From a virus (lineage: Duplodnaviria; Heunggongvirae; Uroviricota; Caudoviricetes), in IMG/VR virus record IMGVR_UViG_3300020714_000006: DNA of 64,000 nt. One strand, given 5' to 3'. The notes below the pieces were generated by a model. That model saw only the letters and a program-made list of their open reading frames with translations. It ran no database searches and had not been told where the DNA came from. Below, one piece after another: positions 22,629 to 45,561 of the stretch (its first letter is position 1; every line of letters starts with the position of its first letter). Made by a program: the position numbers and the translations under genes.

Positions 22629-22696
22629 ATAAATATGAATGTAGCTCGCGGATTGCCGTCCCAACTACTTTAATACTTTAGAGGAGTATCAACATG
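22629..22696 (+). promoter_or_regulatory. Endonuclease leader motif, copy 1 (late promoter plus two hairpins)
   Basis: ATAAATA; GTAGCT-CGC-GGA(N6)TCC-C-AACTAC; ATACT(TTAGAGG)AGTAT; ATG. Confidence 0.65.
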
Positions 22697-22998
22697 AATA
22701 TTTATCAAACTACAACTAAGCATTGTCCAAAATGCAATACTACTAAACCTACAACAGAATTCTATAAAAATAATAACAAAAAAGATGGATATAAGGTTCA
22801 GTGTAAACAATGTAACCATACCTACCAATAGCATTTGCAACTACCGAAGAAGAAATAATGTTGATAAATCATTATACCAACCTTAGACCACTGTGGGCAA
22901 AAGATAATATCGTTAAAGGCGATAAACTAACAGAAGATGTATTACAACATCCTATATATAAATCTATACTCAATGCACGGTCTACCAAAATTTTCTAA
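22694..22998 (+). pseudogene. HNH/EndoVII-like endonuclease with internal deletion and frameshift
   Basis: CPKC..CKQC finger joined out of frame to LPIAFA..NHYTNLRPLWAKDN. Confidence 0.75.
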
Positions 22999-22999
22999 A

Positions 23000-23520
23000 T
23001 TCAACGAAAAAAAAATTTTCCAGGAATTTTTCAAAACCGTTTTCTAATACTACCAACATTCTTTTAAGGGGTGGGGGGCAAAAAGGTCTACCAAGATTTT
23101 TCACTAGGCGCGTAAAAAATTAGGGGGAGTTACTTACCGGCGAATGGGGCTGTTTTTCTACATATAAGGCTCTTTTTAAAAGAGTTCTTTTAGAGTAGAA
23201 ATTAAAATAGAAATAAATTGAAAAGAAAATGAATTCAAAATCAAGAAGTTTTTCACGCGCTCGATGAAAAAAATAAGTAAGTTCTTATTTACATGATCAC
23301 CCCCCCCTCGATAAGTAAGAACTTACTTAAAAAAATAAGTAAAAAAATATTTAAAAAAATAAGTTACGCATTACGATAAAAAAATAATGAATAACTTATT
23401 TACCACGCTCCCCCCCTCTGAAAATAAGGAACTACTTACCGAGGATTGTAAGTAGCTCCTGATTGGATTAGTTAAGGAAGTGCTGAACAGCATACACTGC
23501 TGTCGTCAACACTGCTATAA
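23000..23520. repeat. A-tract and G/C-tract region with TAAGTAAG/CTTACTTA repeats
   Basis: AAAAAATAAGT x3, CCCCCCTC x2, TAAGTAAG-AA-CTTACTTA hairpin; no ORF. Confidence 0.6.
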
Positions 23521-24118
23521 CCAAAAGACCGCCCGCGATTAAGGCAGTCATTACTACATCATCCCTTAGAATGTCCCACGCTATTGATAAGTAGTTCATT
23601 ACTTTCATATAGTAACCTCCCCCTTATCGCTCATCTTGATAACATCAAGCACTCGAATACCATCGAGTCTTAAGTCACTCATTAATTCCCCATAATCGGC
23701 TTGGGATACTTCGTAATAACCCTCGTCTTCTGTAATCACAATATAATACATTTAAAGCTCCTGTAATGCCCGTTAAGGCTTGATAATGGTCTAGGCTATA
23801 CAATCGCATAGCCTAGAGTGTAAAAGTGTCGCTATGAGCCTTGTAAGCCCATAGACATAAACAATGGACAATTAGCTTGTAATATATTAGGCATTGCATC
23901 TAATATAAACCTAGTTTTAAAGATACCGTTCGATAGCTGAATGCTACCATTAAATAAAGGCACTAAGCCTTGATATGTGTCTATAGCGGTATCACTATAG
24001 ACTGAAATAGCGTTAAATGAATCTGCTTGTACTACGCTTAAAATTGCCATTGTCTTAATCTCTCTCTTTTCAGGTTTATAAAAGATAGGCTTACATTATG
24101 TAAGCCTATCAAGGTTGA

Positions 24119-24655
24119 TTAGATTGTTTGTTTATTCGCGGTTAAGTTAATAACATTATCTAATTTTACTATTCTAACAAAGTCATCATGCTCGACTTGA
24201 TTAGTTACATTAAATACCGTTCCACTTGTATCTAGTAAATCTCTAGCACCGCTAGGCGTCATTAATACTGCGATTGCCTCGCGATTTGATAACTTACCAT
24301 TTAATGTAAATTCTACACTAGAACAATCGTTCCAATGTAGTGCAAGGTAATAATCATCTTTAGTATTATGTTTAGCTAAGCTATAACATTCATCGGTATG
24401 ATGCCAAAATGTTTTACCTTTTACCCATTCACCTGTAAATTCATCTGTTTTAATCGTTCTTAACACTCGATTTACATACGGGTCTGTATTATCTCGCAAG
24501 TTATTAAATAACATAATGCTACCCGTTGAGCGTTTCATTGCTATATTGGCTTTACGATTACCCGCAGATAATTCTACTGGCGTTAATATCTCAACATTGC
24601 CAATAGTAGCACCGCGAGTATTTGCTAATAAATCTATTAAATCTTGTTTATTCAT
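24119..24655 (-). CDS. Early hypothetical protein
   Basis: 178-aa ORF. Confidence 0.7.
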   Translation of the reverse strand: MNKQDLIDLLANTRGATIGNVEILTPVELSAGNRKANIAMKRSTGSIMLFNNLRDNTDPYVNRVLRTIKTDEFTGEWVKGKTFWHHTDECYSLAKHNTKDDYYLALHWNDCSSVEFTLNGKLSNREAIAVLMTPSGARDLLDTSGTVFNVTNQVEHDDFVRIVKLDNVINLTANKQTI

Positions 24656-25361
24656 TTTATAATCTCAATTAAGGTTAATAAGGTTTATTTGATATAGCCC
24701 ACTCAAGGTAATGAATAACCCCATAGGCGATAATCCCGAATTGTTAAAGAGCAGATAAAACATAAAACATAACTTAGGATTCACACTATACAGCAATAAA
24801 ATTTTATTGCAAGATTTATTTTCACTTGATTAAAACCTTACAAAATATCAGGTAATAAAACCTTACAATTTAGTAGGTAATTGCATTCAAAATATAGTCA
24901 TAAATCACTTATTACCCGAAAACCAAAAAATGCTCACTACGGCACGATAAAAAAAAAAGTAATACCAGAATAAGGCTTAAATCATTATCGAGCCACCACG
25001 GCAAAAAACGCATTTTTCAGATTACATTCACTTATAACTTATTATGACATGCTGGATTAAAATTTTTCTTGACTTGATATCAAGTTTATGTTAGCACTTG
25101 CCTAGCAAAAATTTCTATTGACTTGCCAGTAAATCTATGCTAGGACATAATTCCCCTACTAAGTAGTTGGTTATTATTCTGGTAAGCACTGACTTAACTA
25201 GGTAAGTAGTTACTGAACTGCTTCAGTTGTTACTTACTCGTGGCTGCGACTTCTGTGTGTTAGTCAGTGCTTCCTTATCATTGGCTGCGATACCCTGATT
25301 CAGTCAGTGCTTACTGAACTGCACCGGCAAAATAAAAGCCGGCATTGCCGGCTTTCGGTGT

Positions 25362-25706
25362 TTACTTCCCGACTAGGCGGGACACTGATACAATGTGTCC
25401 CTTATCGTTCCGCTGGGCGGTCGTTCCCGTGTCAGGGGCGAAACATTGTCCCGCTAGTGCGTGGTCGGCTGGTATGGCATCTAATACCATACTAGATACT
25501 AAGAGCGTGGCATCAGGGGCAAATACTCCGCCAAAGTCCACCGCTCCCGCTTTGCGGGTAATCACGGGGAAGCCGTGGCGAGTACCAGCTATAACTTCCT
25601 CAACCGTAACACGGGCAAGAAACCCGCTGGGTTGAACGGTAATGGCATCAATGCCATCAGCATTGATAGTGATAGCGTGCGGTGTAAGATTGATAAACTG
25701 TGTCAT
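25362..25706 (-). CDS. GC-rich early hypothetical protein (FINLTPH..PSG..ARV)
   Basis: GGAGC RBS before ATG 25706; terminator AAGCCGGC..GCCGGCTT downstream. Confidence 0.75.
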   Translation of the reverse strand: MTQFINLTPHAITINADGIDAITVQPSGFLARVTVEEVIAGTRHGFPVITRKAGAVDFGGVFAPDATLLVSSMVLDAIPADHALAGQCFAPDTGTTAQRNDKGHIVSVSRLVGK

Positions 25707-26319
25707 GGTGTTGCTCCTGCCCGTGGGCGTAGGTGGTAGCAAGACAGCCTTGCTACCTGAGATTAGTATTATACATGGGTGGGTTGCCCGTGTATACGTG
25801 TTATGCTAGCGGGCAATATTGCACAGCTAGCATATATGATTATGCTACTATCACAGCTAGCATTAATCGAATAACCAAGGCATACCTTGGTCGTCGTATA
25901 TAAAGTCTTCCCCAGTGTCGCGTGGTGCAGGTGCATCTGAGCCAACGTATAAATCCAATGAATTTATATCCATTTTTTCTCCTAGTCCGTAGACCGTTGA
26001 AGTGATTAAAATTGTTAAAGAGCGTGTAGTAAACTGCGACTACGGGATATATTCTACCAGCTCCAGCATGGATGTCAACACCTTTTGCAAAATAAATTTA
26101 AAGCTAATTTCAGCCCCGCCACGGCACGATTATGGTTAAACAATACCAGAGTAGCACTTACCAGCTAAACGACCAACCACGGGCATTTTTGCCCACTTCC
26201 TGCCAGTACCACTGGCATTACCACGGGCATTATCACTTATGGGATTGTATACCTTGATTCAGTCAGTGCTTACTGAACTTCACAGATATAAAAAGGCTGG
26301 ACAATGCCAGCCTTTTGTG

Positions 26320-26502
26320 TTAGAATTCAAAGTCCTCGAATTCCATGTCTTCTAAGTTGGTTACTAATCCGTCAAAGTCTTCACTCGATCCTAGGATGGA
26401 AGCCATGGTGTAAACTGTTTGTTTATCCACTCCATAGTCTTCTGCTAGACAGTTAAGATAATCTGTTCTATTTTCGTAGCCTTTGTCGGTATAGATGCTC
26501 AT
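26320..26502 (-). CDS. Small acidic early protein
   Basis: GGAG RBS; terminator AAGGCTGG..CCAGCCTT. Confidence 0.7.
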   Translation of the reverse strand: MSIYTDKGYENRTDYLNCLAEDYGVDKQTVYTMASILGSSEDFDGLVTNLEDMEFEDFEF

Positions 26503-26915
26503 GATTTAATCTCCGTTTGGGATAATGGTTGAGGGGAAATCCCTCAACCTTGTGATTATTATACAGGGTTTTTTAAATACCGCAAGCTTTTAGAAACTTT
26601 TCTTTGTCAAAGCGTGGATTGGCTTGTTTTGCCATTCTAGCAAAATCCTCGGCTGATTGTTTACGCACAGATAGGTCTTGATTGGCTTTAATAATGTTTG
26701 CCATTTGAATAAAATGTTTCTTTGAAGGCATTTGTAGCTCCTACATAGTGTGTTTAATGAGTGTATAGTATAACGGTCGGGCGCGTGGCTGTCAAGCGTT
26801 ATACACAGCTAGCATTATTGCTTTATCAGGTGTAACACTAGCATAAACCCGCTTGTTGTTCCTAGCACCATAGCACTAGCCATGATACCATCTAATATGT
26901 TGTGATATGTGTTCA

Positions 26916-27092
26916 TTAGTTTAGCTCCTCTAAATATTGAGCTTGTTCTTGCTCATCCAGAATTGCAGTCACTTCATAATGACTGGTTGATGGGTATTCG
27001 TATTCGGCACGTTCTTTGTTGTGTGCGAATACTTCCATTACTGCATCTTGGTCGCACATATTGTCGTTGAAGTGAACATAAAATTTAGCCAT
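26916..27092 (-). CDS. Small early protein (58 aa; not in the ORF track)
   Basis: Promoter module plus GGAG RBS; MAKFYVHFND... Confidence 0.65.
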   Translation of the reverse strand: MAKFYVHFNDNMCDQDAVMEVFAHNKERAEYEYPSTSHYEVTAILDEQEQAQYLEELN

Positions 27093-27159
27093 TTTGTTCT
27101 CCTTTCGGGTTTTGTTGTTGATGTGGCTATTATATACTAATAGCCACGATTGTCAACTT

Positions 27160-27384
27160 TTATTTTAAAGATAGTTCAAGATTTTCTGCTATCTCTGGGC
27201 GGTTAAATATCAACCACTTAGCAAACTTCATTGTTTGTGCGGAACGGGCAAACGAATGTGGAAACGCTCGACTAGGCTCTCTAATGTTGGTAAAATATTC
27301 TTGTACTTCCTCACATGGATACCATCGGTTAGCGTTATCGGTGTTGCCAATTCTTCTTAACTCTCTCCAAGATAATGTTTTCAT
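27160..27384 (-). CDS. Early hypothetical protein
   Basis: ORF with GGAG RBS. Confidence 0.65.
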   Translation of the reverse strand: MKTLSWRELRRIGNTDNANRWYPCEEVQEYFTNIREPSRAFPHSFARSAQTMKFAKWLIFNRPEIAENLELSLK

Positions 27385-27484
27385 TACTATTCTCCTACTA
27401 TTATATAAGTGTTATAAAGATATGTTACAGCATTACTTAAAATAATGCCAATACAAATTATATCGACAAACCATTGACTAAATA

Positions 27485-27742
27485 CTAGCATAATTCATTA
27501 TCCTCTCTAGTGTCAAATTCTTCGCCTACACCACGAACAAAGTGATCCCTATGCAATACCTCAGTTATGCGATTAAAGTCAGCCATAGGCAATTTTAACG
27601 TGCCTAATAACTCCTCTCTAATGTCGTTGAGTATATGATGAATAGATAGTTTATTATCTTGGTAATCATAAAATACTTCTAAGCCCCCAATGACTTTGTG
27701 GAAATCACTGGTTAAGTATCTGCCTGTATTGTTTTCGTTCAT
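27485..27742 (-). CDS. Early hypothetical protein
   Basis: Promoter module upstream. Confidence 0.65.
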   Translation of the reverse strand: MNENNTGRYLTSDFHKVIGGLEVFYDYQDNKLSIHHILNDIREELLGTLKLPMADFNRITEVLHRDHFVRGVGEEFDTREDNELC

Positions 27743-27994
27743 TTTGTTCTCCTTTCGGGTTTTGTTGTTGATGTGGCTATTATATACTAATAGCCACTAT
27801 TGTCAAATATTAATCTATGAAAAAATCATAGTCTTTATCAAATTCTTCCTCTGCCCAAGGTGCGTTGAAGTCTTCTTCATACGCTTCGTACTCTTCATAC
27901 TCTTCAAAACCTAATACTTCTTCAATCATTGCTTTTACTCCTTTCGTTGATGTTGGGATTATTATAGGGGCTTCCTTGCCCCTTGTCAATACCT

Positions 27995-28219
27995 TTATGC
28001 AAATAAATTTTCGTCATATCTCACGAGATATCCTCTCGTGCCGTTCATTGCTTTGAATACCATTGTATCCCCTACGATACATTCGTATCCACTATCTTTT
28101 TTGGTTACAGTCAAACCAGCTTGTCTTAGCTGTTTGATTGTTTGTTGTGTAACTGATTTAGTCCAAACTCTTGAAGTATATTTTATCATTTTATGATGCT
28201 CCGTGATGGTTAGAGCCAA
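27995..28219 (-). CDS. Early hypothetical protein (start probably 28192)
   Basis: GGAG RBS, promoter module. Confidence 0.6.
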   Translation of the reverse strand: MALTITEHHKMIKYTSRVWTKSVTQQTIKQLRQAGLTVTKKDSGYECIVGDTMVFKAMNGTRGYLVRYDENLFA

Positions 28220-28272
28220 TCTCTAACCTTGTGACTATTATACAGGACAATAGCCACTTGTCAAATTTTATT

Positions 28273-28485
28273 TTAATCTAAAATTGAATCTGCGAATACA
28301 TTTATTTTCTTGCCTTTGTAGCTTATATTGGCTGTACCATGATTACCAAAAGAGCTGTAATAATTTACTTTTCTGGTAATATCCTGGCCTTTTTTATTTT
28401 TCAAAGTTATTGTATCTTTAACACCATTAGTGTAATTGATCCAGCGTGATCCATTGTTGTTAAGATATAAAGTGCCTGTATACAT
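28273..28485 (-). CDS. Early hypothetical protein
   Basis: GGAGC RBS, hairpin promoter at 28510. Confidence 0.65.
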   Translation of the reverse strand: MYTGTLYLNNNGSRWINYTNGVKDTITLKNKKGQDITRKVNYYSSFGNHGTANISYKGKKINVFADSILD

Positions 28486-28552
28486 TGTTTTGCTCCATTG
28501 CTGTTTAGTGAGTGGATAGTATAGACTATCCACTCTAGCATGTCAAATCTTT

Positions 28553-28759
28553 TTAATCATTTTCTATTACAATGGCATTTGTTTGCCATTCATAGCACAC
28601 ATAATATCTTTTACCTTGCCATTTAACTAATCCTGTGGTATCAGTACCAGCTAATACTTGTAATCCCTTAGGGGCGCGTGTCCATTGAAAATGGTGTTTA
28701 TTCAATCCTGATGAGAATTGGTACAAGTCAAATAAGATATTACCTAGTAATTGGTTCAT
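28553..28759 (-). CDS. Early hypothetical protein
   Basis: Follows 28763..28951. Confidence 0.6.
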   Translation of the reverse strand: MNQLLGNILFDLYQFSSGLNKHHFQWTRAPKGLQVLAGTDTTGLVKWQGKRYYVCYEWQTNAIVIEND

Positions 28760-28762
28760 TGC

Positions 28763-28951
28763 TTATGCCTCCATTAAATTATCAAGTTTAATGCTTTCAG
28801 GACTATCAGCATAGGCAAGTTTTCTAGCAACATCTAATAATAACATTGCTTCATCTCTATGCAAGTTATGATACTCAGCAAACTTGTCAATGCTTATGAA
28901 ATTGTTTACCCAGTCAAAGTACATCTCAACTAATCGTTCTCTAGTGTTCAT
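28763..28951 (-). CDS. Early hypothetical protein
   Basis: ACGGAGC RBS. Confidence 0.65.
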   Translation of the reverse strand: MNTRERLVEMYFDWVNNFISIDKFAEYHNLHRDEAMLLLDVARKLAYADSPESIKLDNLMEA

Positions 28952-29033
28952 CTGAATTGCTCCGTTCTTATTGAATGAGCGTACAGTATACTATACGCTC
29001 GTGTGGTGTGTCAAGCGTTATACACAGCTAGCA

Positions 29034-29228
29034 TTAAGCATCCTGCATCACAATGGTGTAGCCGTTCTTAGTCGCTTTGCCGTGCAGTTGTATTTGTGTT
29101 TGTAGCATCATTGCATCGGCTGTTTGTTTTACAGTCAAACCACCTCCGCATACTTTAACACATATATTAGGCAATATGCTGTTATCATACTTTGTCACTT
29201 GGTTTGCTTTGTTTGTTACTGTAATCAT
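29034..29228 (-). CDS. Early hypothetical protein
   Basis: ACGGAGC RBS, hairpin promoter. Confidence 0.65.
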   Translation of the reverse strand: MITVTNKANQVTKYDNSILPNICVKVCGGGLTVKQTADAMMLQTQIQLHGKATKNGYTIVMQDA

Positions 29229-29292
29229 CTGGTTTGCTCCGTTTTGTTATTGAAGCGTATATGATACAGCTAGCATATACGCTTGTCAACTA

Positions 29293-29532
29293 TTATTTTA
29301 AACTTTTTACAATTCGTTCTTCTAGTTCAGGTAGCATACCTTCACACACCTGTAATACAATGCCTCCGCCATATTGTTTGTTATGAAATTTACGACCGCC
29401 TAACTTGTTACCACGTTTGATTGCCACTTCATAACTTGCCTTTTCATCTTCTTTGATGAAGTTCAAGAAGTGACATACATGACGAGAATTGCCATTGATG
29501 TCTGCGGATACTCTAGTGAATTCGATTGCCAT
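29293..29532 (-). CDS. Early hypothetical protein
   Basis: Promoter module. Confidence 0.65.
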   Translation of the reverse strand: MAIEFTRVSADINGNSRHVCHFLNFIKEDEKASYEVAIKRGNKLGGRKFHNKQYGGGIVLQVCEGMLPELEERIVKSLK

Positions 29533-29595
29533 TTTGTTTGCTCCGTTTTGTTGTTGATGTGGCTATTATACAGAACAATAGCCACTTGTCAATAA

Positions 29596-29844
29596 TTATT
29601 TGTATTCTAAATCGTAATTAACTAATATCCATTCCGATGTTGGATATTCCAAGTAATCTTTTAATTCTTGCTCGTTTTCAGCATAGTAAAAGATATTATT
29701 ATCTGGTATGCCATAATTGTCAAGTTCATTTTCTTCATCATTTTGACCAAATGATACATAACCAGTATAATGTACTCGTTCTGCTTCTGGATGGAATGTT
29801 TCATCCCCCCAATAATACTCGATTGTTGCCCCGATTGCTTTCAT
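29596..29844 (-). CDS. Acidic early hypothetical protein
   Basis: Promoter module. Confidence 0.65.
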   Translation of the reverse strand: MKAIGATIEYYWGDETFHPEAERVHYTGYVSFGQNDEENELDNYGIPDNNIFYYAENEQELKDYLEYPTSEWILVNYDLEYK

Positions 29845-29907
29845 GTTTGTTACTCCGTTTTGTTGTTGATGTGGCTATTATACAGGACAATAGCCACTTG
29901 TCAACAT

Positions 29908-30177
29908 CTATTTTTTCCAGATATGTTTTATCTGCCATTTCTCGACTATTGGCTTGCCATCCCAATCTTCGCCAATGGCAACATAGGCAACAGTTTTCTT
30001 GACATTAGCAAATCGAACACTACCATCACATACTGCGATCTCATGAGCAAAGCCATTGCGAATTCCCCAATCACCTTGTCTTGGGGCATCACCTGTGCTT
30101 ATTCTGTATTCAAATCTGGTTTTGAATTCTGGGATAATGAATTCACCGATTGCATCTAATGATTGAAAGTATGACAT
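29908..30177 (-). CDS. Early hypothetical protein
   Basis: GGAGC RBS before ATG 30177. Confidence 0.65.
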   Translation of the reverse strand: MSYFQSLDAIGEFIIPEFKTRFEYRISTGDAPRQGDWGIRNGFAHEIAVCDGSVRFANVKKTVAYVAIGEDWDGKPIVEKWQIKHIWKK

Positions 30178-30393
30178 TTTGTTGCTCCATTGTGGGTTGA
30201 ATAAGGATATATTATAAACCTTATTCAACCACTGTCAACAATTATTTTTTTATCTTATAACATTCAGCAACACGCAATTCTTTACGCTTACCAGCATCAG
30301 TCGATTCAAATAAGGCCATATCACATGATTGTTTATCAGTATAATAGGTCGATTGTACTTGACCATTATAAAAGATCAATAATAAAAGATAAC

Positions 30394-30555: not shown

Positions 30556-30636
30556 GTTATTTGCTCCGGTTGTTAGTATGTGTGTATCATAACACGCGCG
30601 TATAGGCGTGTCAATCAATATGTACAGCTAGCACTC

Positions 30637-30819: not shown

Positions 30820-30917
30820 GTTATATACTCCTATATGTGTGCTATGCGGGCTATGGTAATATGTACAGCTAGCATTGTTATAATATGGGGCTAGTATAAC
30901 CTAGCCCCAATTGTATG

Positions 30918-32843: not shown

Positions 32844-32905
32844 TGCCTATTCCAGTTTTGTTAATATATGGTTATTATAATTTATTGTCAATAATATGTC
32901 AAGTG

Positions 32906-32988
32906 ATAAATACACTGCAACAAAAAAAGCCAATCGCGGTGGTGGTACACCCATTGGCATTAACGTCTTTGAGGAGGACATCAACATG
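32906..32988 (+). promoter_or_regulatory. Endonuclease leader motif, copy 2
   Basis: ATAAATA; GCCAAT-CGC-GGTG(N6)CACC-C-ATTGGC; GTC(TTTGAGGAG)GAC; ATG. Confidence 0.7.
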
Positions 32989-33789
32989 GATATTTATATT
33001 CCGTACACCTATATTATTAAATTTTTACCAACTGGTCAAGTCTATTATGGAGTTAGTTATGCTAATAATTCTAAAAGAGTTGCTAATCCATCTCAATTTT
33101 GGATTTCATATTTTACATCATCATCAACTATACATCAACTAATATCTGCTTATGGTATAGAATCATTTTCTGTTCAGGTTAGAAAAACTTTCAACAATGC
33201 TTCAGAGGCACGATTATGGGAACATAAGGTGCTTAGTAGGGTCAATGCTAAAAATAATCCATTATGGTTTAATAATCACAATGGTGGAACTAATTTTGCT
33301 AATGCTAAGCTATCAGCAGAACATAAAGAAAAAATAGCACGATCTAGACGAGGTAACCCTCTTTCAGATGAAACAAAACGTAAAATTAGCGAAACACGAA
33401 AACAATTAAGTTTACCATCCCCAACAACAGGAACACCACGTTCAGACGAAACAAAACGTAAAATTAGCGAAACACGAAAACAATTAAGTATACCATCACC
33501 ATTCAAAGGAAAAACACATACAACCGAAACAAAAATAAAATGTGGTAGTAAGAATAAAGGTCGTAAATTATCTGATGAAAATAAACAAAAGCTGTTACTA
33601 GCCAATATTGGTAGGAAAATGACAGAGGCTAATAAAAAACTATTATCACAACGGGCAAGTAAAGCAGTGTATTGTGATGGTTTTATTTTTAGTTCAATCA
33701 AATTAGCCGCACAAATATTAAGAGTACACATTTCTACTATTCTGAATAGAAAAAAGGCATACCCTTTACGATATTTTAATATAAATTAA
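32986..33789 (+). CDS. GIY-YIG (Seg-like) homing endonuclease with NUMOD3 repeats
   Basis: YTYIIKFLPTGQVYYGV; YFTSS; repeated SDETKRKISETRK. Confidence 0.85.
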   Translation: MDIYIPYTYIIKFLPTGQVYYGVSYANNSKRVANPSQFWISYFTSSSTIHQLISAYGIESFSVQVRKTFNNASEARLWEHKVLSRVNAKNNPLWFNNHNGGTNFANAKLSAEHKEKIARSRRGNPLSDETKRKISETRKQLSLPSPTTGTPRSDETKRKISETRKQLSIPSPFKGKTHTTETKIKCGSKNKGRKLSDENKQKLLLANIGRKMTEANKKLLSQRASKAVYCDGFIFSSIKLAAQILRVHISTILNRKKAYPLRYFNIN

Positions 33790-34217: not shown

Positions 34218-34245
34218 ATATTAAACCATATGATAAAGCAGTTTG

Positions 34246-34317
34246 TACACCCTCCGAGACTCGAACTCAGATCTGACAAATTATGAGTTTGTTGTTTTAC
34301 CATTAAACTAAAGGTGT
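34246..34317 (-). tRNA. tRNA with anticodon CAT, probably Ile2; CCA not encoded
   Basis: Full cloverleaf: ACACCTT/AGGGTGT, GTTT/AAAC, ACAAA-CTCATAA-TTTGT, CTGAG-TTCGAGT-CTCGG; C4-G69 and C5-G68. Confidence 0.85.
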
Positions 34318-35794: not shown

Positions 35795-35868
35795 AATACT
35801 TTAATCTCCGTCGTTGTTTAAGTTGTAATTAGTATAGCATAATAAAAACACTTGTCAACACTATTTTG

Positions 35869-35948
35869 ATAAATAATAGACAATAAAAAAGCCAATCGTG
35901 ATATTGCAAGTATCCATTGGCGGTAACGACTGGAGGGTCATCACAATG
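35869..35948 (+). promoter_or_regulatory. Endonuclease leader motif, copy 3
   Basis: ATAAATA; GCCAAT-CGT-GATA(N7)TATC-C-ATTGGC; GAC(TGGAGG)GTC; ATG. Confidence 0.7.
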
Positions 35949-36647
35949 GATATTTATCCTATACAATCTAAGCATTGTAAAAAATGCAATACCATTTTGT
36001 CAATAGATAATTTTCATAAAGACAAAGATAAAAAAGACGGGTTAAAAACACAATGTAAAAATTGTGAAAAAATCCGTAAAAAACTAACATATAAACCAGC
36101 TATACCTATTAAACTTCTCACTGTATCATCTGGTTATCATCATTGTAAAAAATGCGATACAACACGTCCTATAACTGAATTTAGTAAAGATAAATCTAAA
36201 CCCAACGGGATATCTTACACATGTAAATATTGCCGTAAATCATATCAGGATAAGTATCACCCAGAATACTTTCAAAATAATAAATCTAAAAGAGCAGAAT
36301 ATGCTAAAAATAGACGTGCTACTGATCCAATGTATCGGTTTAAAAGCAATGTTCGGTCATTAGTTTATAACGCTTTTTATAAGAAAGGCTATTCTAAAAA
36401 ATCCAAAACATTTTCAATATTAGGATGTTCTTACGAACAATTTATAATCCATTTAGAAACACAATTTACTGATGGTATGAAATGGGATAATTATGGTGAA
36501 TGGGTTATTGACCATATCATTCCGTTAGCATCTGCCTTGACTGAAAGTGATATAATAACATTAAATTATTATACCAACTTACAGCCATTATGGGCAACTG
36601 ATAACCTAGCAAAAAGTGATAAACTAGATTGGATTAAACCATTATAG
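35946..36647 (+). CDS. HNH/EndoVII-like endonuclease with two CxxC..CxxC fingers
   Basis: WVIDHIIPLA..NYYTNLQPLWATDNLAKS. Confidence 0.85.
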   Translation: MDIYPIQSKHCKKCNTILSIDNFHKDKDKKDGLKTQCKNCEKIRKKLTYKPAIPIKLLTVSSGYHHCKKCDTTRPITEFSKDKSKPNGISYTCKYCRKSYQDKYHPEYFQNNKSKRAEYAKNRRATDPMYRFKSNVRSLVYNAFYKKGYSKKSKTFSILGCSYEQFIIHLETQFTDGMKWDNYGEWVIDHIIPLASALTESDIITLNYYTNLQPLWATDNLAKSDKLDWIKPL

Positions 36648-36690
36648 TAAGAAGTGTCCATTATATACTAATGGACACGATTGTCAACTA

Positions 36691-38185: not shown

Positions 38186-38251
38186 TGTCTTGCTCCGTTG
38201 TTGTTAAGATGTGTCCATTATAAACTAATGGACACTATTGTCAACTACTAA

Positions 38252-38866
38252 TTATTCGTGTTCTTCGTCTTGGTCTTCTTCCCACATTTCTAAATTCTCG
38301 ATGATATTAAATTCTTCATCTAATTCAGTTGGTAAGATATCTCTAGCATTCTCTAAACTCTCCCACTCGAAATATGAATTACCTCCCTCATTGGTAAACC
38401 ATCCAGCAAAACCACAACCAGACTCATAATACTTGGCATCTACTTCATAACCTTGTTCAAATAACTCTACATATATTTCACTAGGTGAACACCATGCTGT
38501 ATCAAATACCGCTCTTACAGTATAATCAGTCAATTCTAAACCATTGCCTTTATCTAACCATTGTGGCGGTAAATCCTCTATAATTCTAGCATCACATATA
38601 TCCCACTTCGTTCCCCACTCATGTGTAGTAAATTCATGCCAATCTGAATAACCATATTTCTTTCTATTCGATAATTGTTTAGCTTCTAATTCTTCTTGTT
38701 CAGGTGTTCCAGCACCCATACAACCTGCAACCGTTTCAAGCAATTCTTGTGGTACTGGTTTAATGGTTTCACATAATCTATTGTTTCTAATTGCTTCTAC
38801 AATCAGTTCCATTTTCTTAGGATCTGGATGTGATAATGTTAATGTATTATTGCACCAATTTGGCAT
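38252..38866 (-). CDS. YubB/Api92-like (DUF1281-type) ferredoxin-like protein
   Basis: MPNWCNNTL, DW...WGTKWD, FDTAWCSP, YYESGCGFAG. Confidence 0.75.
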   Translation of the reverse strand: MPNWCNNTLTLSHPDPKKMELIVEAIRNNRLCETIKPVPQELLETVAGCMGAGTPEQEELEAKQLSNRKKYGYSDWHEFTTHEWGTKWDICDARIIEDLPPQWLDKGNGLELTDYTVRAVFDTAWCSPSEIYVELFEQGYEVDAKYYESGCGFAGWFTNEGGNSYFEWESLENARDILPTELDEEFNIIENLEMWEEDQDEEHE

Positions 38867-38926
38867 TGTCTTGCTCCGTTTATTGTTAAGATGTGTCCAT
38901 TATATACTAATGAACACTATTGTCAA

Positions 38927-39151
38927 CTATTTTGATAGATACTTTAATCTTGCTTCATGGGCATCATCATAACTGTATTCATGTGTTCCCATTACATAAG
39001 GCCAACCAGAAAACGCATTACCATTACCTAAGAACTTTAATACATATTTGCCATTATGTATTTGAACTACAAGAATGTTAGTAATGTTGCGTAATTTCTC
39101 TAATGATGATACTCGTTCATCTAAGATACCCTCTGAACTGTTCCAACCCAT
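38927..39151 (-). CDS. Early hypothetical protein
   Basis: ACGGAGC RBS. Confidence 0.65.
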   Translation of the reverse strand: MGWNSSEGILDERVSSLEKLRNITNILVVQIHNGKYVLKFLGNGNAFSGWPYVMGTHEYSYDDAHEARLKYLSK

Positions 39152-39192
39152 TGTATTGCTCCGTTTCGTTAATGTCAGGTTATTATACCAAG

Positions 39193-39402
39193 TTATTCGT
39201 TGATGTCAACAAGTTTTAATTCATAAAACATATCTTTTTCTAAATCAACTTCATTATAGTCAATGGCATAATTGTCACCATACTCTTCACCAATGCCATA
39301 AAACATTTCATCATCCCAATGAGAGATACGAATGCCCTCACAATCGGCTGGTACATAGACTGCTGTTCTTGCTAATATAGCCTTAATTTTTTCAATACTC
39401 AT
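39193..39402 (-). CDS. Early hypothetical protein
   Basis: Coupled to the upstream gene. Confidence 0.65.
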   Translation of the reverse strand: MSIEKIKAILARTAVYVPADCEGIRISHWDDEMFYGIGEEYGDNYAIDYNEVDLEKDMFYELKLVDINE

Positions 39403-39611
39403 TGCTCTGCTCCTAAACTGAAATTACTAATACCTACGAATTTATACTCATCATACCAATCTGATTGACAACTACAACATTTTACATTGACTGTTGCCAT
39501 ATTGCAATCTAAATCTATACAAGAACTCTCTAAATCATTACTTCCACAATGGGGACAATATATACCACCTTTCTCTACATACTTGTTTTCTTGCTCTTTA
39601 GTCAATTTCAT
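39399..39611 (-). CDS. Zn-ribbon protein
   Basis: CPHCGS..CCSC. Confidence 0.7.
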   Translation of the reverse strand: MKLTKEQENKYVEKGGIYCPHCGSNDLESSCIDLDCNMATVNVKCCSCQSDWYDEYKFVGISNFSLGAEQ

Positions 39612-39659
39612 TGCTCTGCTCCACTTTGTTTAAGATGTGTCTAGTATAACATACCAGTT

Positions 39660-39977
39660 CTATTTGATCAACTCATTAAAATTTTTCCATTTTGGAACAT
39701 ACCAACCGTCCGAATCAGAAAGAGTATTGTATAAGTGATCACCTAATTCAATTTCATTGTTCTGCATTGGTACAACAGCTTCATCTTCATCTTCATCTTC
39801 ATCTTCTTCTGAAGTAAAACATATAGAAAATGGTTGTTTACATTTCTTAAGTTCAACTGCATGTGGGTCTACAAATTCATCTATCGCCCAAAATAAATCA
39901 GTGGTATTACCAGCTGATACTAATCCATGATGACTAATGGTATTGTCTGATTGTTTAATTCGAAATGCGTATATCAT
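39660..39977 (-). CDS. Acidic early protein
   Basis: Promoter module; (ED)n tract. Confidence 0.65.
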   Translation of the reverse strand: MIYAFRIKQSDNTISHHGLVSAGNTTDLFWAIDEFVDPHAVELKKCKQPFSICFTSEEDEDEDEDEAVVPMQNNEIELGDHLYNTLSDSDGWYVPKWKNFNELIK

Positions 39978-40039
39978 CGTTCTGCTCCACTTTGTTTAAG
40001 ATGTGTCCATTATAAACTAATGGACACGATTGTCAACTA

Positions 40040-40414
40040 TTATGCGTAATCATCTAATGTTAAAATATTTAATGTTAAAATATTGTATACGTCTGGATAA
40101 TCATATCTTACATCATTGACTATTGTTTGTATATCTTTTCTGTGTTTCATTTCTTGATATAACTGAGCGAATGCTTCAATCTTATTCATTATATCATTGT
40201 TCAACTCATGAACTTCATCAATATGCATCTTTATTGCTTCATCAATCTCTTTTGCTTGAAGTAAATCATTGCAATCAACATAGATAAGACCCTCAGTATA
40301 ATCTACTGTAGCCAATCCACCTGTCAATTCTCTTACCTTTTTTTCATAACCATGAACTCTAAATAACTCATTTATGTGTTGTGAAAAATTTACTTCAACT
40401 CTATATAATATCAT
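40040..40414 (-). CDS. Early hypothetical protein
   Basis: Promoter module. Confidence 0.65.
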   Translation of the reverse strand: MILYRVEVNFSQHINELFRVHGYEKKVRELTGGLATVDYTEGLIYVDCNDLLQAKEIDEAIKMHIDEVHELNNDIMNKIEAFAQLYQEMKHRKDIQTIVNDVRYDYPDVYNILTLNILTLDDYA

Positions 40415-40478
40415 TGTCTTGCTCCGTTTCGTTTAAGATGTGTTCATTATATACTAATGAACACTATTGTCAACTATT

Positions 40479-40679
40479 TTATACTAATACCTTGTATGTT
40501 TTACGACCTAGTACATATTCCTTAAACTTATTACGTTGAGCATGTTCGTGCATAATTTCTACTGCTCTCTCATATTCTACATCTCTTGCAATCGTGTATT
40601 GGTCATCACACTCATTATCACATATCATTAAATCATATCCATCTGCACCTTGGTGACTTATACAATATTCATACTTCAT
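40479..40679 (-). CDS. Early hypothetical protein
   Basis: Promoter module. Confidence 0.65.
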   Translation of the reverse strand: MKYEYCISHQGADGYDLMICDNECDDQYTIARDVEYERAVEIMHEHAQRNKFKEYVLGRKTYKVLV

Positions 40680-40738
40680 CTTCTTGCTCCGTTCTTGTTA
40701 AGATGTGTTCATTATATACTAATGAACACTATTGTCAA

Positions 40739-40969
40739 CTATTTTGTTATTACACGTCCATCACTACATAAGTATGTTGTGGTTTCTGGTATCTGTGTAA
40801 ATGAACCACCATGTAATGGATTATATACAGTATATCCATCAGTATGCTCAATGTCAACACATTCATTATCTAATGTTCGATATTCTACGATCTGAATATA
40901 CGCATTGATTCCCAATACAACCATTATTAATATAGTAATGATTGCAAAAAATTTCTCTACTCTAGTCAT
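40739..40969 (-). CDS. Small membrane-anchored protein
   Basis: N-terminal hydrophobic helix; GGAG RBS. Confidence 0.65.
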   Translation of the reverse strand: MTRVEKFFAIITILIMVVLGINAYIQIVEYRTLDNECVDIEHTDGYTVYNPLHGGSFTQIPETTTYLCSDGRVITK

Positions 40970-41324
40970 TATCTTCTCCTCTATTGAATATATGTCTATT
41001 ATATACTAATATTATTTCTTGTCAACTGTTGACATTATCTTATTCTTCGGTATAATATACACATCGATGCAAGGATAGCAACGTGGGATATACAGGTGAT
41101 GCTGATTACAAGTCGAGTAATATCAAAGGCAACTTGTCTGTTATTTTTTAATAACACAAATAATAATGGGAGCATTAGCCCCCATTATGATAATACCCAC
41201 GCTGGATACAGTATGTCCTTATATGTGACGTGTTATTATCTTGTAAGGTTTTTCACACCAAGACCACTCTTACATTATGTCTATAATACGGTGCTATGCT
41301 CCATGCACAATGATACAATAATCT

Positions 41325-41594
41325 TTAATAAACCAATACAGCTAAGATTGGCTTTAATTCGTTAAATGTCTGCTCAGATATCTCTCTGAAGCAATCTGCA
41401 TAAACCGCACATCCATTACTAAAGTGATAGCATTGGTCATCGGCCAAGTCATCACCATCTTCTGCATACCATGTTCTAGCAATGTCGTTTGCTTTCTCTT
41501 GTATCTCATCTTCAGTAGAGATTGCTAAACAACTGGTAGTATTCTCATACTCACCATTCACATCTGTTATTTGCACTAAATAAAACTTATTCAT
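41325..41594 (-). CDS. Early hypothetical protein
   Basis: Promoter module. Confidence 0.65.
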   Translation of the reverse strand: MNKFYLVQITDVNGEYENTTSCLAISTEDEIQEKANDIARTWYAEDGDDLADDQCYHFSNGCAVYADCFREISEQTFNELKPILAVLVY

Positions 41595-41660
41595 TCTAAT
41601 TGCTCCGTTTCGTTTAAGAAGTAGCCATTATATACTAATGGCTACTATTGTCAACTACTA

Positions 41661-41978
41661 TTATGCAGTTTCTTTATTATAAAATTCATCAATGGCAACT
41701 AATACATCATCCAATGAACCATCTAAAAAATCATTATGTTGCTTCTCAACAACTTTTGAAGTTATACGCTTACATGCTGTAGATATATAAGTTCTCATAA
41801 AGTCTTGATACATCATATGACTTACAAACATCCCCTCTCTCGTGCCTACACTAACGAAAGTGTTTAACAAACCATTGCTAGTCTTGCGTGTAGTAATAGA
41901 TACTTCTCTGTTATCTAAATCAATAGTTGTCTTTGCTACCCAGTTCTTTGACCAATCTTTACTAATATATGTGTTCAT
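41661..41978 (-). CDS. Early hypothetical protein
   Basis: Hairpin promoter at 42003. Confidence 0.65.
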   Translation of the reverse strand: MNTYISKDWSKNWVAKTTIDLDNREVSITTRKTSNGLLNTFVSVGTREGMFVSHMMYQDFMRTYISTACKRITSKVVEKQHNDFLDGSLDDVLVAIDEFYNKETA

Positions 41979-42042
41979 CTTTATGCTCCAATGTTTGTGA
42001 ATGAATGGCTAGTATATACCAGCCATTCTAATATGTCAACTA

Positions 42043-42393
42043 TCAGTTTAAATAAACTCCACTATACCAACTTGTACCTTGTTCACTATATAACCCTACT
42101 TCATCTAATGCTTTATCCATTAAATCTATAGCACCATAGCACTCATAATCATAGTTAAAGAATGGTGCAACACCACCACCATCATATACAATAATCAATT
42201 CAGCACCAAGACAAAATTCTTCCCCTCTGGCTTTCCATTCAGCTGGACTATAAAAGGTTTTACATCCACCTGTATCTAAGGCATCATTATCAATCAATAC
42301 TTGCATAATGGCTTTATATGCTTTCTTACCATTAGATGATAAACCATCTGGCATTAGGTTATTCACTACATCTTGTTTAATTGCTTCTCTCAT
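42043..42393 (-). CDS. Early hypothetical protein
   Basis: Promoter module. Confidence 0.7.
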   Translation of the reverse strand: MREAIKQDVVNNLMPDGLSSNGKKAYKAIMQVLIDNDALDTGGCKTFYSPAEWKARGEEFCLGAELIIVYDGGGVAPFFNYDYECYGAIDLMDKALDEVGLYSEQGTSWYSGVYLN

Positions 42394-42459
42394 TGTCTTG
42401 CTCCGTTATGTTTAAGATGTAGCCATTATATACTAATGGCTACTATTGTCAACTACTAA

Positions 42460-42702
42460 TTATTCAGCTAACAATCCACTAATTTTTGCATCTGCTCGTA
42501 ATTGCTTTAATCTATCCAAATTCATTAATTGGTATTCATTCAATTCATACCATTCTTTACGCTGTTCTTCATTAAAGTATATACTTGGACGTTTACGACC
42601 ATCTAATGAATGATATGTTGCAAATTTCCCAAAACTAAATGTTTCAATCTTTACCTTGTACCCAATCGCCTTTAATTCTTTTCGTAATTGTGCTAATGTC
42701 AT
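42460..42702 (-). CDS. Early hypothetical protein
   Basis: GGAGC RBS. Confidence 0.65.
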   Translation of the reverse strand: MTLAQLRKELKAIGYKVKIETFSFGKFATYHSLDGRKRPSIYFNEEQRKEWYELNEYQLMNLDRLKQLRADAKISGLLAE

Positions 42703-42756
42703 TGCTCTGCTCCAGTTGGTTAATGAATGGCTATTCTATCAGGTTTATTTTACTTG

Positions 42757-43038
42757 TCAATAGTTTCCACTAAGATAATCTATTACTCTAGTAATTTCAA
42801 TAACCCATCTTGAATTATTGTCAAATTTTTCTTCTAAAACCTGTTTTGTTTGTTTTGCTTCTAATAAAAATTCTTCCAATACCATTTTATTAAACATATC
42901 AACAGGAACAGTATAATCATTACTAATATACTGTATATTGTCAATAAACTTATCAATCTTTGGTAATGTTTCTAGTTTTATAATATCAACCATATCTTGA
43001 ATGTCATTGTCAATGTCTAAAATTTCAACAATTTTCAT
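42757..43038 (-). CDS. Early hypothetical protein
   Basis: ORF within the early block. Confidence 0.55.
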   Translation of the reverse strand: MKIVEILDIDNDIQDMVDIIKLETLPKIDKFIDNIQYISNDYTVPVDMFNKMVLEEFLLEAKQTKQVLEEKFDNNSRWVIEITRVIDYLSGNY

Positions 43039-43234
43039 ACAGGCGTGTTTTTTAACTTTTCTACTAATACTTCCAACTTGTCTACCGAATCTTTTAACCT
43101 ACTATAATACTCATATTCAGCTTTCAATTCGTCCTCCTTTTTTGTTATATCTTCTTTTAACTCATCTACCATTTTGTTATTCCTCATCATATTCACTTAA
43201 TGAATGGCTATTATTTCATAGCCATTCTATCTTG

Positions 43235-43453
43235 TCAAACTATTTTTACAAACTCATCATCATGACCATAATCTATACTATATGCACTAATAGCCAATTC
43301 ATCATCTTCATATACGACTTTTACATCAATCTCCGAACCATTGATAAAGTAAGCAAACCAATGCTCTTCACCATGTAATTCAACATCGTAAAAATCAAGT
43401 ATATAAGAAATGATTTCGTTCTCTCTACCACGCACTAAACTCTTAATGTTCAT
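43235..43453 (-). CDS. Early hypothetical protein
   Basis: ORF with upstream promoter. Confidence 0.6.
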   Translation of the reverse strand: MNIKSLVRGRENEIISYILDFYDVELHGEEHWFAYFINGSEIDVKVVYEDDELAISAYSIDYGHDDEFVKIV

Positions 43454-43526
43454 ATCTGCCCCTAGTTAAATGAAACACTATTCTATCAGGGTTATACTAA
43501 TTGTCAACAATATTTAAATCTGGTTC

Positions 43527-43826
43527 CTAATCTGGTTTGCTCATTAAATCAAATAATGTTCCTGCCCTAATACTAGGCAATAACTCAATTCGATAATTGT
43601 TTAATAACTCTGCCCATTCGTCTTGATGTGAAATATCAAATACTGTATAGATATCACCATCTTCTATTGACAATGAAGACAACGATTCAATGAATTCATC
43701 AGGACACATCATCTCTGCTTCTGGTATATCATAAATATCAAACTCATAACATCCATCTACTACATTAGCACCTATATATCTAGCCATCTCTTTCCCCAGT
43801 TCAATTACTATTTCGTCTATTCTCAT
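43527..43826 (-). CDS. Acidic early protein
   Basis: Overlaps 43801..44001. Confidence 0.6.
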   Translation of the reverse strand: MRIDEIVIELGKEMARYIGANVVDGCYEFDIYDIPEAEMMCPDEFIESLSSLSIEDGDIYTVFDISHQDEWAELLNNYRIELLPSIRAGTLFDLMSKPD

Positions 43827-44001
43827 AGTTCTCTAATTTGTCAAGTATTCTTCGTGATATCTTTAATGCCTCTTGATATATTTCCTCTTGTTCTTCTGCA
43901 CTATGTGTATGCTCTACTATATCAGCTTTATATTCTGGTATCAATACACCACGTTTAGCTAAGTTCTCCTTAGCTATCTTTAACTTTTCTTCAATGTTCA
44001 T
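43801..44001 (-). CDS. Early hypothetical protein
   Basis: Promoter at about 44030-44060. Confidence 0.6.
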   Translation of the reverse strand: MNIEEKLKIAKENLAKRGVLIPEYKADIVEHTHSAEEQEEIYQEALKISRRILDKLENYENRRNSN

Positions 44002-44196
44002 ATTATCATTCCACTATTCAAAACCTATATTCTATCACATCATCACAATCTGTCAACTGGTTTTCAAACATTTGTCTAGACAATAACATCTTTGTAATAT
44101 CAACCTGTTTAACAGTCCATTCTTCTATAGTATATCCTTCCGGTACATATTTCTCATCTATCATTATATTAATCCCCATATGTGTACATTACACAG

Positions 44197-44451
44197 CTAG
44201 CACATATCCAACTGCACCTGGTAGCCATTCCAGGATCCCAATATACCACCTGGTTTTACTTGCTGGTCTCTAATCTGCTCTAAAGCTTCCAATGCGGCAA
44301 TTGCTGCCAAGTTGAATGAACTAGTACTACCAACTCCACTTCGAACCATGGCAGCAGTAGTTCTAAATGATACTGCATTAACACGGACCAATAACTGCTG
44401 TGATTTACTTAACTGCTGCGATTTACTTAAACGTTTCATTGTGTGCTCCAA
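44197..44451 (-). CDS. Early hypothetical protein
   Basis: GGAGC RBS near 44445; start may be 44439. Confidence 0.55.
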   Translation of the reverse strand: MEHTMKRLSKSQQLSKSQQLLVRVNAVSFRTTAAMVRSGVGSTSSFNLAAIAALEALEQIRDQQVKPGGILGSWNGYQVQLDMC

Positions 44452-44915
44452 TTTAAAAAATCATATGGTAGCACAATGCATATATGGTGTCAAGCAATAT
44501 TACACAGCTAGCATATTAGAATATTGATATAGCACAGCTAGCATTATGGTAGGTAGATGGGTGTATTTGATAATGGACTTGACATCTTGAGTAAAGTATG
44601 ATATAATAGATTACTTTTCTCTAGACAAACGAAAACATCAAATCTCAAGCAATTTTTCGTTGAGTTCTGACGCTAATTGAAATTCTAATTGTATTGTTCC
44701 TGGTTATATGGTCCAGGGCCATTCTATGCCTATAATGTGTCTCACGTAAGGTAATGGTACGTCCATATAATGCTTGACAATGTGCCTGTATGCTGCCTAC
44801 TAGTGTATATCAATATTCACAGCTAGCATTCTTATATTAGCCACTTATGTACCAGGTCTTATGGGTCTGCCTGAAGTGGTTTCTCTATATCATACTATCT
44901 ATAACATTATTTATC

Positions 44916-45119
44916 TTATTTGTCAACTTCTTTAACTGTTACATGCCATCCTATAGAAGGTGGCGCTGTTGTTATATAGTCCATGGCAGCTTCTTCACTG
45001 TCAAAACACTCATAGTCAAACCTGGTGTCAGTATACTTCCAACAATGATAGATAGAGTTGCTGCGTCTCACTCTTACTACATGAGTTGTGAAAGTCATCT
45101 CAAATATTAAATCTTCCAT
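44916..45119 (-). CDS. Hypothetical protein
   Basis: GGGAG RBS and promoter at about 45150-45180. Confidence 0.6.
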   Translation of the reverse strand: MEDLIFEMTFTTHVVRVRRSNSIYHCWKYTDTRFDYECFDSEEAAMDYITTAPPSIGWHVTVKEVDK

Positions 45120-45484
45120 AACATACTCCCATTATATAAGATATTTACATATTATATCACATTTTTATACCATTGTCAATATACACAGCTAGCATTCTAG
45201 GGCAAAACTATGCAATTATCGTGCCAATAATGTTATCTAACAGCCTGGGAAAAGGGTTGACAACATTGTAGAAGTATGGTATAATGTGGGGTTTTGTGTA
45301 GTGAAAACGTGCATAGCTGAGAAAGATACTATGGTTTCCACAGCTTTATGACTGTATAAGAATGATTTCCACAGCTTTTTGACTGTACTGTACAATACAG
45401 ATAAAGTAAAGTATCTACCCTGTATGACGCTTATATGAGCGTGATAAGGGTGCTGATATATAGAGGCACAGCTAGCATTCTAGC

Positions 45485-45561
45485 TAAATATTAGACAATA
45501 AAAAAGCCATTCGTGATATGGGGATATCCAATGGCGGTAACGACTGGGAGGTCATCACATG
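45485..45561 (+). promoter_or_regulatory. Endonuclease leader motif, copy 4
   Basis: TAAATA; GCCATT-CGT-GATAT(GGGG)ATATC-C-AATGGC; GAC(TGGGAG)GTC; ATG. Confidence 0.7.

Follow-up and report, generated by a model that had tools for sequence, protein, structure and literature searches.

A portable structured cassette at the start of unrelated homing endonuclease genes in T4-like phages, with a putative antisense RNA on its opposite strand

Introduction

How can a phage genome carry several homing endonuclease genes and keep them harmless? Homing endonucleases serve as a model of selfish DNA; to our knowledge, the ways in which phages restrain them come only from a few T-even cases. The question is raised by a stretch of 64,000 nucleotides from an uncultured giant T4-like tailed phage of a lake (Caudoviricetes; IMG/VR record IMGVR_UViG_3300020714_000006), referred to here as the window, in which one leader recurs before three homing endonuclease genes and the remnant of a fourth. 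We found that this leader is a conserved cassette of about 90 bp, extending through the ribosome site and the first four codons of the gene. The fold that is conserved suits the strand opposite to the gene; the cassette therefore probably gives rise to a small antisense RNA that keeps the nuclease in check.

Results

One Cassette at Four Sites

A first-pass annotation of the window, made from the sequence without database searches, had proposed a shared RNA leader at 22629, 32906, 35869 and 45485. All four copies are present where it placed them (TAAATA at 22630, 32907, 35870 and 45485; Table 1), the stems it quoted were found and the pattern lies far beyond chance. Specifically, CATCANNATGRATATTTAT with up to two mismatches has four matches in the window against 0.25 expected, and three of these are cassette sites; at s4 the spacer is shorter (s1–s4 denote cassette sites 1–4 in positional order). 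A covariance model, R1, was built from the four window sites and three copies located 5′ of protein homologues in IMG/VR. Run against the window, it returned the four sites with E-values of 5e-17 to 4e-16, and the next best match had an E-value of 0.095.

The shared layout consists of (G/C)(A)TAAATA, a 6-bp outer stem with a bulged inner hairpin (hairpin 1, or B), a second hairpin bearing the Shine-Dalgarno sequence (SD; hairpin 2, or A), and ATG RAT ATT TAT. Across the family the start reads ATG-NNT-ATT-TAY. Two details of the stems needed revision. The stem GTAGCT/AACTAC, which is hairpin 1 of cassette 1, holds one C·A mismatch (G·U on the minus strand), and the second hairpin is longer than had been claimed, with 8 pairs running from CTA, TTA or GTA before it to CAG, CAA or CAC just 5′ of the ATG. 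In cassette 2, an A7 run abuts the stem.

Covariation and Strand Preference of the Fold

Covariation, on which the first-pass annotation had staked its proposal, holds in a larger alignment. In 41 distinct copies from other phages, 95.4% of the cells of the sense structure were paired; the figure for shuffles was 68.4%, and none of 500 reached the observed value. Compensatory changes on both sides occurred at 13 of the 14 pairs.

The kind of mismatch that is tolerated indicates which strand folds, as a sense RNA structure should accept G·U and not A·C. Mismatches were counted on the gene strand of 144 unique leaders, to which the energies below also refer. In hairpin 1 (outer stem, bulge pair and inner pairs), the non-Watson-Crick cells were 22 A·C and 1 G·U; the middle base of the apparent 3-nt bulge pairs with the single base opposite (G-C 134, A-U 4, A·C 6). 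At one fixed position of hairpin 2, A·C occurred in every parsed leader, the position itself being forced by the parse. In the independent alignment of a second covariance model, R2, 104 of the 105 distinct rows have an antisense G·U at this position. The remaining cells of hairpin 2 that depart from Watson-Crick pairing were 67 A·C and 2 G·U. The pair next to the fixed position covaries (C-G 131, U-A 10, G-C 3), being U-A at window sites 1 and 2 and G-C at sites 3 and 4. An A·C of the gene strand reads as G·U on its complement, and the opposite strand thus accounts better for the fold. The comparison of A·C with G·U was indecisive on the unbiased set alone (39 rows, short structure) and became clear with the larger set and the extended helix.

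Folding energies point the same way. Of the 144 leaders, 131 had their lower minimum free energy (MFE) on the antisense strand (antisense −17.0, sense −13.2 kcal/mol), and composition-controlled z-scores were −1.97 for antisense and −1.22 for sense. The 19-pair antisense structure was paired in 98.0% of 1978 cells compared to 77.0% in shuffles. In the window, the minus strand of all four copies gave the same clean two-hairpin fold, with the MFE structure equal to the centroid. At site 1, the antisense strand folded at −13.8 kcal/mol and the sense strand at −10.4 kcal/mol, the latter without forming the family fold. The sense strand reached −14.6 kcal/mol (z −1.49) at site 3 and −15.3 kcal/mol (z −1.73) at site 4. 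In the sense MFE structures of these two sites (35908–35957 and 45522–45570), however, UAUCCAUUG, the 3′ half of hairpin 1, pairs instead with CAAUGGAUA, located at the start codon; this pairing is not family-wide.

Convergent Putative Promoter Boxes and a U-Tract

Read on the minus strand, codons 2–4 of the nuclease genes spell ATAAATA; the box is TATAAATA in cassette 2 and GATAAATA in the other three. Because R2 models the folded part only and leaves out the box region, its hits give an independent view of this box. Of the 39 unique hits that came from unbiased sources, 38 had TAAATA 3–6 nt upstream of the fold, as did 5 of 6 extra hits (43/45). The amino acid at codon 2 varies, its final base is always T, and the Ile codon is always ATT, which argues for selection on the nucleotides and not on the peptide.

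On the sense strand, TAAATA occurred within 2–23 nt of hairpin 1 in 135 of the 144 leaders, and about 5 nt before it in 87. At window sites 2–4, this box is displaced by 16 nt and the gap is filled by an A6–7 run, so that the box and a U-tract on the other strand both appear to be kept. The 10 nt past the antisense hairpin contained a mean of 6.2 U; this tail is the complement of the sense TAAATA and the A-run.

The cassette box matches the late promoter of T4 and of T4-like cyanophages, for which NATAAATA has been reported (PMC2984593). A late-type box directly upstream of the endonuclease open reading frame, as first proposed, is present at all four sites. Both boxes are putatively active late promoters, a reading drawn from the published motif, from the T4-type major capsid protein (gp23) encoded in all three of the five cassette-rich genomes tested, and from TATAAATA located 37 nt before gp23 in one cassette-bearing genome. 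Within the window, GATAAATA was not enriched (15 vs. 9.7 expected), so motif frequency alone is uninformative. TATAAATA was under-represented (5 vs. 19.1 ± 4.5 expected), with three of the five occurrences in cassettes or intergenic, and this scarcity fits avoidance of a functional signal.

Distribution and Portability

A strict sequence pattern of the cassette matched at least 119 stretches in IMG/VR. Among the matches listed, 113 of 123 had every pair of the outer stem formed, although the pattern left five of the six pairs free, and more than 15 different compensatory outer stems were seen. The covariance search that the first-pass annotation had suggested located 48 copies with R1 across five complete or near-complete IMG/VR records of 195–361 kb, each T4-like genome carrying 4–15. 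Further copies were found in IMG/VR records holding homologues, and one of them heads a third, different HNH type.

Genes behind the cassettes were grouped by their N-terminal domains, because single-linkage clustering of whole proteins lumps all of them via NUMOD3. About 20 groups resulted. They include several GIY-YIG and HNH/endonuclease-VII types, C2H2 zinc-finger and DUF723-type proteins, and proteins with NUMOD3 or I-TevI-type DNA-binding domains and no recognizable nuclease domain. The notion of a portable regulatory module common to unrelated nuclease families is thus supported. Cassettes group by genome and not by nuclease family: s3 and s4 are 87% identical while their proteins are 40% identical, and the GIY-YIG cassette s2 is 71–72% identical to the HNH cassettes compared to 54% to the cassette of its own protein relative. 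As the window cassettes are more alike than their genes, the cassette and first four codons appear to be exchanged between unrelated genes within a genome. Decayed genes retain the cassette as well (site 1 and loci L072, L203, L213 and L216). This retention, together with the unrelated folds of the nucleases, leaves the suggestion that the RNA is a partner of the nuclease unsupported.

No match was found among cultured phages (50,697 records) by megablast of 4 kb of the window or by blastn of one cassette, and no cassette is present in Vibrio phage SRILMA, which holds the closest cultured-phage homologue of a common cassette-borne GIY-YIG protein. The suggested Rfam search likewise returned no family for the cassette on either strand. 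At gathering thresholds, Rfam 15 identified in the window only a tRNA and Polynucleobacter-1, both away from the cassettes, and E-value searches of two cassettes on either strand gave chance-level matches only (E 0.6–1).

Discussion

A Predicted Antisense Brake

The fold with its covariation and strand bias, the two boxes with their spacing, and the distribution point to a two-way cassette with convergent late promoters and a predicted antisense RNA of ~65 nt over the ribosome site, a reading to which we assign a probability of roughly 60%. The sense (N)ATAAATA box, about 5 nt (up to 16 nt at window sites 2–4) before the 5′ hairpin, would start a nuclease mRNA that begins at hairpin 1 and bears the ribosome site on a ~55-nt leader. 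From the opposite side, ATAAATA within codons 2–4 (NNT ATT TAY) would direct an RNA starting just past the start codon. This RNA is predicted to form first an 8-bp hairpin whose loop contains the anti-Shine-Dalgarno CUCC and then a bulged hairpin, and would end in the U-tract formed by the complement of the sense promoter or A-run. Being fully complementary to the leader, it would most likely pair with the ribosome site, loop to loop at first, and so hold nuclease translation down. Mutual interference between the opposed promoters may add to this effect.

A genome with 4–15 similar cassettes could allow cross-repression between different nuclease genes. In an extended form of this idea, the antisense RNA would be a trans-acting governor common to all homing endonuclease genes of a genome, and the cassette would also be a recombining unit between unrelated families. 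The pooled small RNAs would then repress each nuclease according to the total selfish-gene load, as in multicopy inhibition. We consider this extension tentative and rather doubtful.

Several points weigh against the antisense reading. Hairpin 1 alone is nearly equal in stability on the two strands (sense −9.6, antisense −10.1 kcal/mol), and a sense 5′ hairpin may coexist with the antisense fold. Many copies are related by descent, so that the counts overstate the number of independent events, and alignment A6 was fitted to the antisense structure. A simple terminator scan missed the cassette hairpins because they are bulged, and two 360-kb genomes lack TAAATA just upstream of gp23. If both promoters are late, the timing benefit is unclear. 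Finally, we infer promoter activity, the existence and ends of the antisense RNA, and repression from sequence features.

Alternative Explanations

The cassette could be a sense leader only, that is, a late mRNA with a stabilizing 5′-terminal hairpin and an SD hairpin that dampens translation, with the strand bias and the TATTTA codons otherwise caused. The covarying hairpins do fold on the sense strand too, the 87 leaders with closely spaced boxes would yield an mRNA beginning with the hairpin, and late promoters combined with hairpins at the ribosome-binding site (RBS) are established for I-TevI, I-TevII, I-TevIII, segB and Aeh1 mobE (PMC2988022). We nevertheless judge it unlikely, given the excess of A·C over G·U (22:1 and 67:2, with one A·C near-invariant), a promoter outside the hairpins, and the near-invariant T ATT TAY of codons 2–4, which it leaves unexplained. 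Sense hairpin 2, with A·C at its fixed position, averages −1.9 kcal/mol and leaves the SD and AUG about half open (unpaired probabilities of 0.49 and 0.46). Strong occlusion of the RBS on the sense strand was rejected on these energies and accessibilities, and the first-pass comparison with the I-TevI mask fails here and on the position of TAAATA upstream of both hairpins. Pairing of the first codons (TATTTA) with the upstream TAAATA, another early proposal, did not hold up either: positions flanking the boxes lack covariation, so the two boxes do not form a long-range helix.

A second explanation takes the bulged hairpin and U-tract as mainly a minus-strand terminator, which would act against backward transcription through the nuclease gene and shield its neighbors with no dedicated regulatory RNA. 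The arrangement in the window suits such an insulator. The nucleases run opposite to their neighbors, U6–7 tracts occur at sites 2–4, a perfect early promoter at 36687–36660 (−) fires into the s3 gene from behind, and the early promoters of the next minus-strand genes come right after the hairpins, at 32902–32874 (−) and 35858–35831 (−). The opposed orientation is known for the window only, however, and cassettes lie on both strands in other genomes; hairpin A with its conserved G·U pairs and the ATAAATA box 3–6 nt before it in 43 of 45 hits would also go unexplained. We regard a pure insulator as improbable. A chiefly DNA-level role, as a recombination site for nuclease swaps, appears very improbable, whether as a homology patch similar to the promoter–stem-loop units (PeSL) proposed to mediate shuffling in T4-type phages (PMC2839356, PMC4122927) or as a single-strand-folded site. 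Clustering of cassettes by genome and not by nuclease family is what such a role would give, and G·T is tolerated in folded single-stranded DNA as well. Yet the cassette has no associated recombinase, a conserved fold is superfluous for plain homologous recombination, and the boxes, SD, spacing and U-tract are all transcription or translation signals. Integron attC is a single-strand-folded site with conserved extrahelical bases, and hairpin B holds two conserved bulged bases on one strand; that the bulged hairpin is a site of this kind is a long shot. Roles as a sense 5′ hairpin, terminator or insulator, and recombination site may each coexist with the antisense role.

Relation to Known Systems

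The closest parallel to the predicted antisense RNA is IS10/Tn10 RNA-OUT, a stably folded antisense RNA of ~69 nt directed to the translation initiation region of RNA-IN (PMC5006887). Convergent promoters, one of them firing outward from just within the 5′ end of a selfish element's gene, characterize IS10 and are predicted for the cassette; in IS10, repression grows with copy number (PMC5006887). In the cassette, a putative opposite-strand promoter inside the 5′ end of the gene is seen at the sequence level, and a short, stably folded antisense transcript ending at a terminator is predicted in silico. Unlike in IS10, the gene is a homing endonuclease of a lytic phage and not a transposase, and both promoter boxes are of phage late type. 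The antisense RNA predicted here consists of two hairpins, with its anti-SD located in a loop and its terminator lying across the sense promoter, and there is no sequence relation between the two systems.

The T-even masks are very stable sense hairpins that hide the RBS in long transcripts and have the late promoter within the hairpin (PMC2988022). The cassette shares with them a late-type promoter upstream, RNA structure at the ribosome site, and a presumed restraint or delay of the nuclease. It differs in having its box upstream of both hairpins, a weak sense RBS hairpin and a fold that favors the other strand, and in being one conserved sequence-and-structure family common to many genes. 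As two defining features of the mask are absent, the predicted architecture is that of IS10 RNA-OUT/RNA-IN and not of the T-even hairpin mask.

PeSL units consist of an early sigma-70 promoter and a stem-loop heading small early genes of T4-type phages (PMC2839356, PMC4122927). Like the cassette, they are short, conserved, repeated promoter and stem-loop units between T4-type phage genes, and they have been proposed to move or shuffle genes. The cassette, by contrast, has late-type boxes on both strands, extends over the SD and the first four codons, and is associated with homing endonucleases. Membership in PeSL was rejected; the cassette boxes are of TAAATA type, and the nearby TTGACA boxes belong to neighboring genes on the minus strand.

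A literature search on antisense control of homing endonucleases turned up only CfrI of cyanophage S-PM2, an experimentally detected RNA that runs antisense to a homing endonuclease gene (Millard et al. 2010, as cited in PMC2984593). CfrI is ~225 nt long and spans the endonuclease gene and psbA, with no known function. It thus resembles the predicted cassette RNA in being antisense to a homing endonuclease gene in a T4-like phage. The S-PM2 genome contains no cassette copy (best R1 E-value 0.29). Control of homing endonuclease genes of the kind proposed here has no Rfam family and no description in the literature searched.

The cassette is a single conserved structured unit that precedes hundreds of unrelated nuclease genes in lake phages that are abundant and uncultured. 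If the antisense reading is true, a transposon-like antisense brake would exist in homing endonuclease genes. With the two covariance models, free-standing homing endonuclease genes can be searched for, as can remnants of such genes, independently of protein family. The cassette also marks probable late promoters in phages without a cultured relative, and could serve as a compact part for keeping toxic nucleases under tight control.

Genes and Features of the Window

The first-pass annotation had described one GIY-YIG and three HNH-type genes behind the leaders. Pfam confirmed the former, as the protein starting at 32986 matches SegE_GIY-YIG with 28.5 bits (cut-off 25) and NUMOD3 with 43.2 bits, and also matches the homing endonuclease family phrog_314 (5.8e-33). 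The proteins starting at 35946 and 45559 have no Pfam HNH match above cut-off; they match PHROG 1035, "endonuclease VII", and carry a C-terminal DH..N..N motif, and their GenBank relatives are annotated as HNH or endonuclease VII. The third HNH-type gene, at 22694, is a dead remnant, internally deleted and frameshifted, with a cassette that is intact on both strands. That the two nuclease families are unrelated, as originally stated, agrees with a BLASTP E-value of 2.8.

Table 1. Cassettes, predicted antisense RNAs and cassette-borne genes in the window.
Feature	Position	Strand	Details
Cassette 1, whole	22628–22706		R1 74.1 bits; R2 68.1 bits on − strand
Cassette 1, parts			sense GATAAATA 22628–22635; hairpin 1/B 22641–22668; hairpin 2/A 22670–22692; ATG 22694
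Cassette 1, ATAAATA box	22699–22705	−	
Predicted antisense RNA 1	22628–22693	−	8-bp hairpin, anti-SD CUCC in loop, bulged hairpin, then AUUCAUAUUUAUC
Cassette 2, whole	32905–32998		R1 76.1 bits; R2 49.2 bits on − strand
Cassette 2, parts			sense GATAAATA 32905–32912; hairpin 1/B 32929–32958; hairpin 2/A about 32960–32984; ATG 32986
Cassette 2, perfect TATAAATA	32991–32998	−	
Predicted antisense RNA 2	32919–32985	−	two hairpins, then U7; −19.8 kcal/mol, z −1.97
Cassette 3, whole	35868–35958		R1 72.4 bits
Cassette 3, parts			sense GATAAATA 35868–35875; A6 run; hairpin 1/B 35891–35921; hairpin 2/A 35923–35944; ATG 35946
Cassette 3, GATAAATA box	35951–35958	−	
Predicted antisense RNA 3	35878–35945	−	two hairpins, then U6AUU; −17.2 kcal/mol, z −2.76
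Cassette 4, whole	45484–45571		R1 72.8 bits; R2 39.1 bits on − strand
Cassette 4, parts			sense CTAAATA 45484–45490; A6 run; hairpin 1/B 45506–45535; hairpin 2/A 45537–45558; ATG 45559
Cassette 4, GATAAATA box	45564–45571	−	
Predicted antisense RNA 4	45493–45558	−	two hairpins, then U6AUU; −18.7 kcal/mol, z −3.75
Endonuclease-VII/HNH-type gene remnant	22694–22998	+	45 codons, then stop; C-terminal HNH piece in other frame, 22816–22998
GIY-YIG (SegE-type) + NUMOD3 homing endonuclease gene	32986–33789	+	267 aa, starts MDIY
Endonuclease-VII/HNH-type homing endonuclease gene	35946–36647	+	233 aa, starts MDIY; phrog_1035 1e-35
Endonuclease-VII/HNH-type homing endonuclease gene	45559–46239	+	226 aa, starts MDIY; phrog_1035 7.9e-26

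All four cassette genes lie on the plus strand amid small minus-strand early genes, and nearly all of the small minus-strand genes between 36 and 45 kb have a perfect TTGACA-16/17-TATAAT promoter. One such early promoter, at 36687–36654 (−), stands immediately behind the s3 nuclease gene, which it would transcribe in the reverse direction; the −10 box of this promoter sits in a hairpin (GTGTCCATTAGTATATAATGGACAC). The tRNA detected with Rfam is a tRNA-Met at 34245–34317 (−), between nuclease sites 2 and 3, and the Polynucleobacter-1 RNA (RF01718, 62.7 bits) is at 57918–58070 (+).

Variant cassettes were observed in other genomes. At L072:1488–1651, the cassette start is damaged (ATG TAT TTA, a dead frame of 30 codons) and 75 nt further downstream comes a GIY-YIG gene that has its own ribosome site; this cassette may be a left-over ahead of a newer insertion. 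The cassette at L127:2602–2688 lacks an ATG at the expected position but retains the TAAATA box of the minus strand. In a 195-kb genome, a cassette at G008:C1:92084–92160 (−) lies directly downstream of gp23 (92316–93395, −), which places a homing endonuclease beside a core late gene. T4 segD also adjoins a core late gene.

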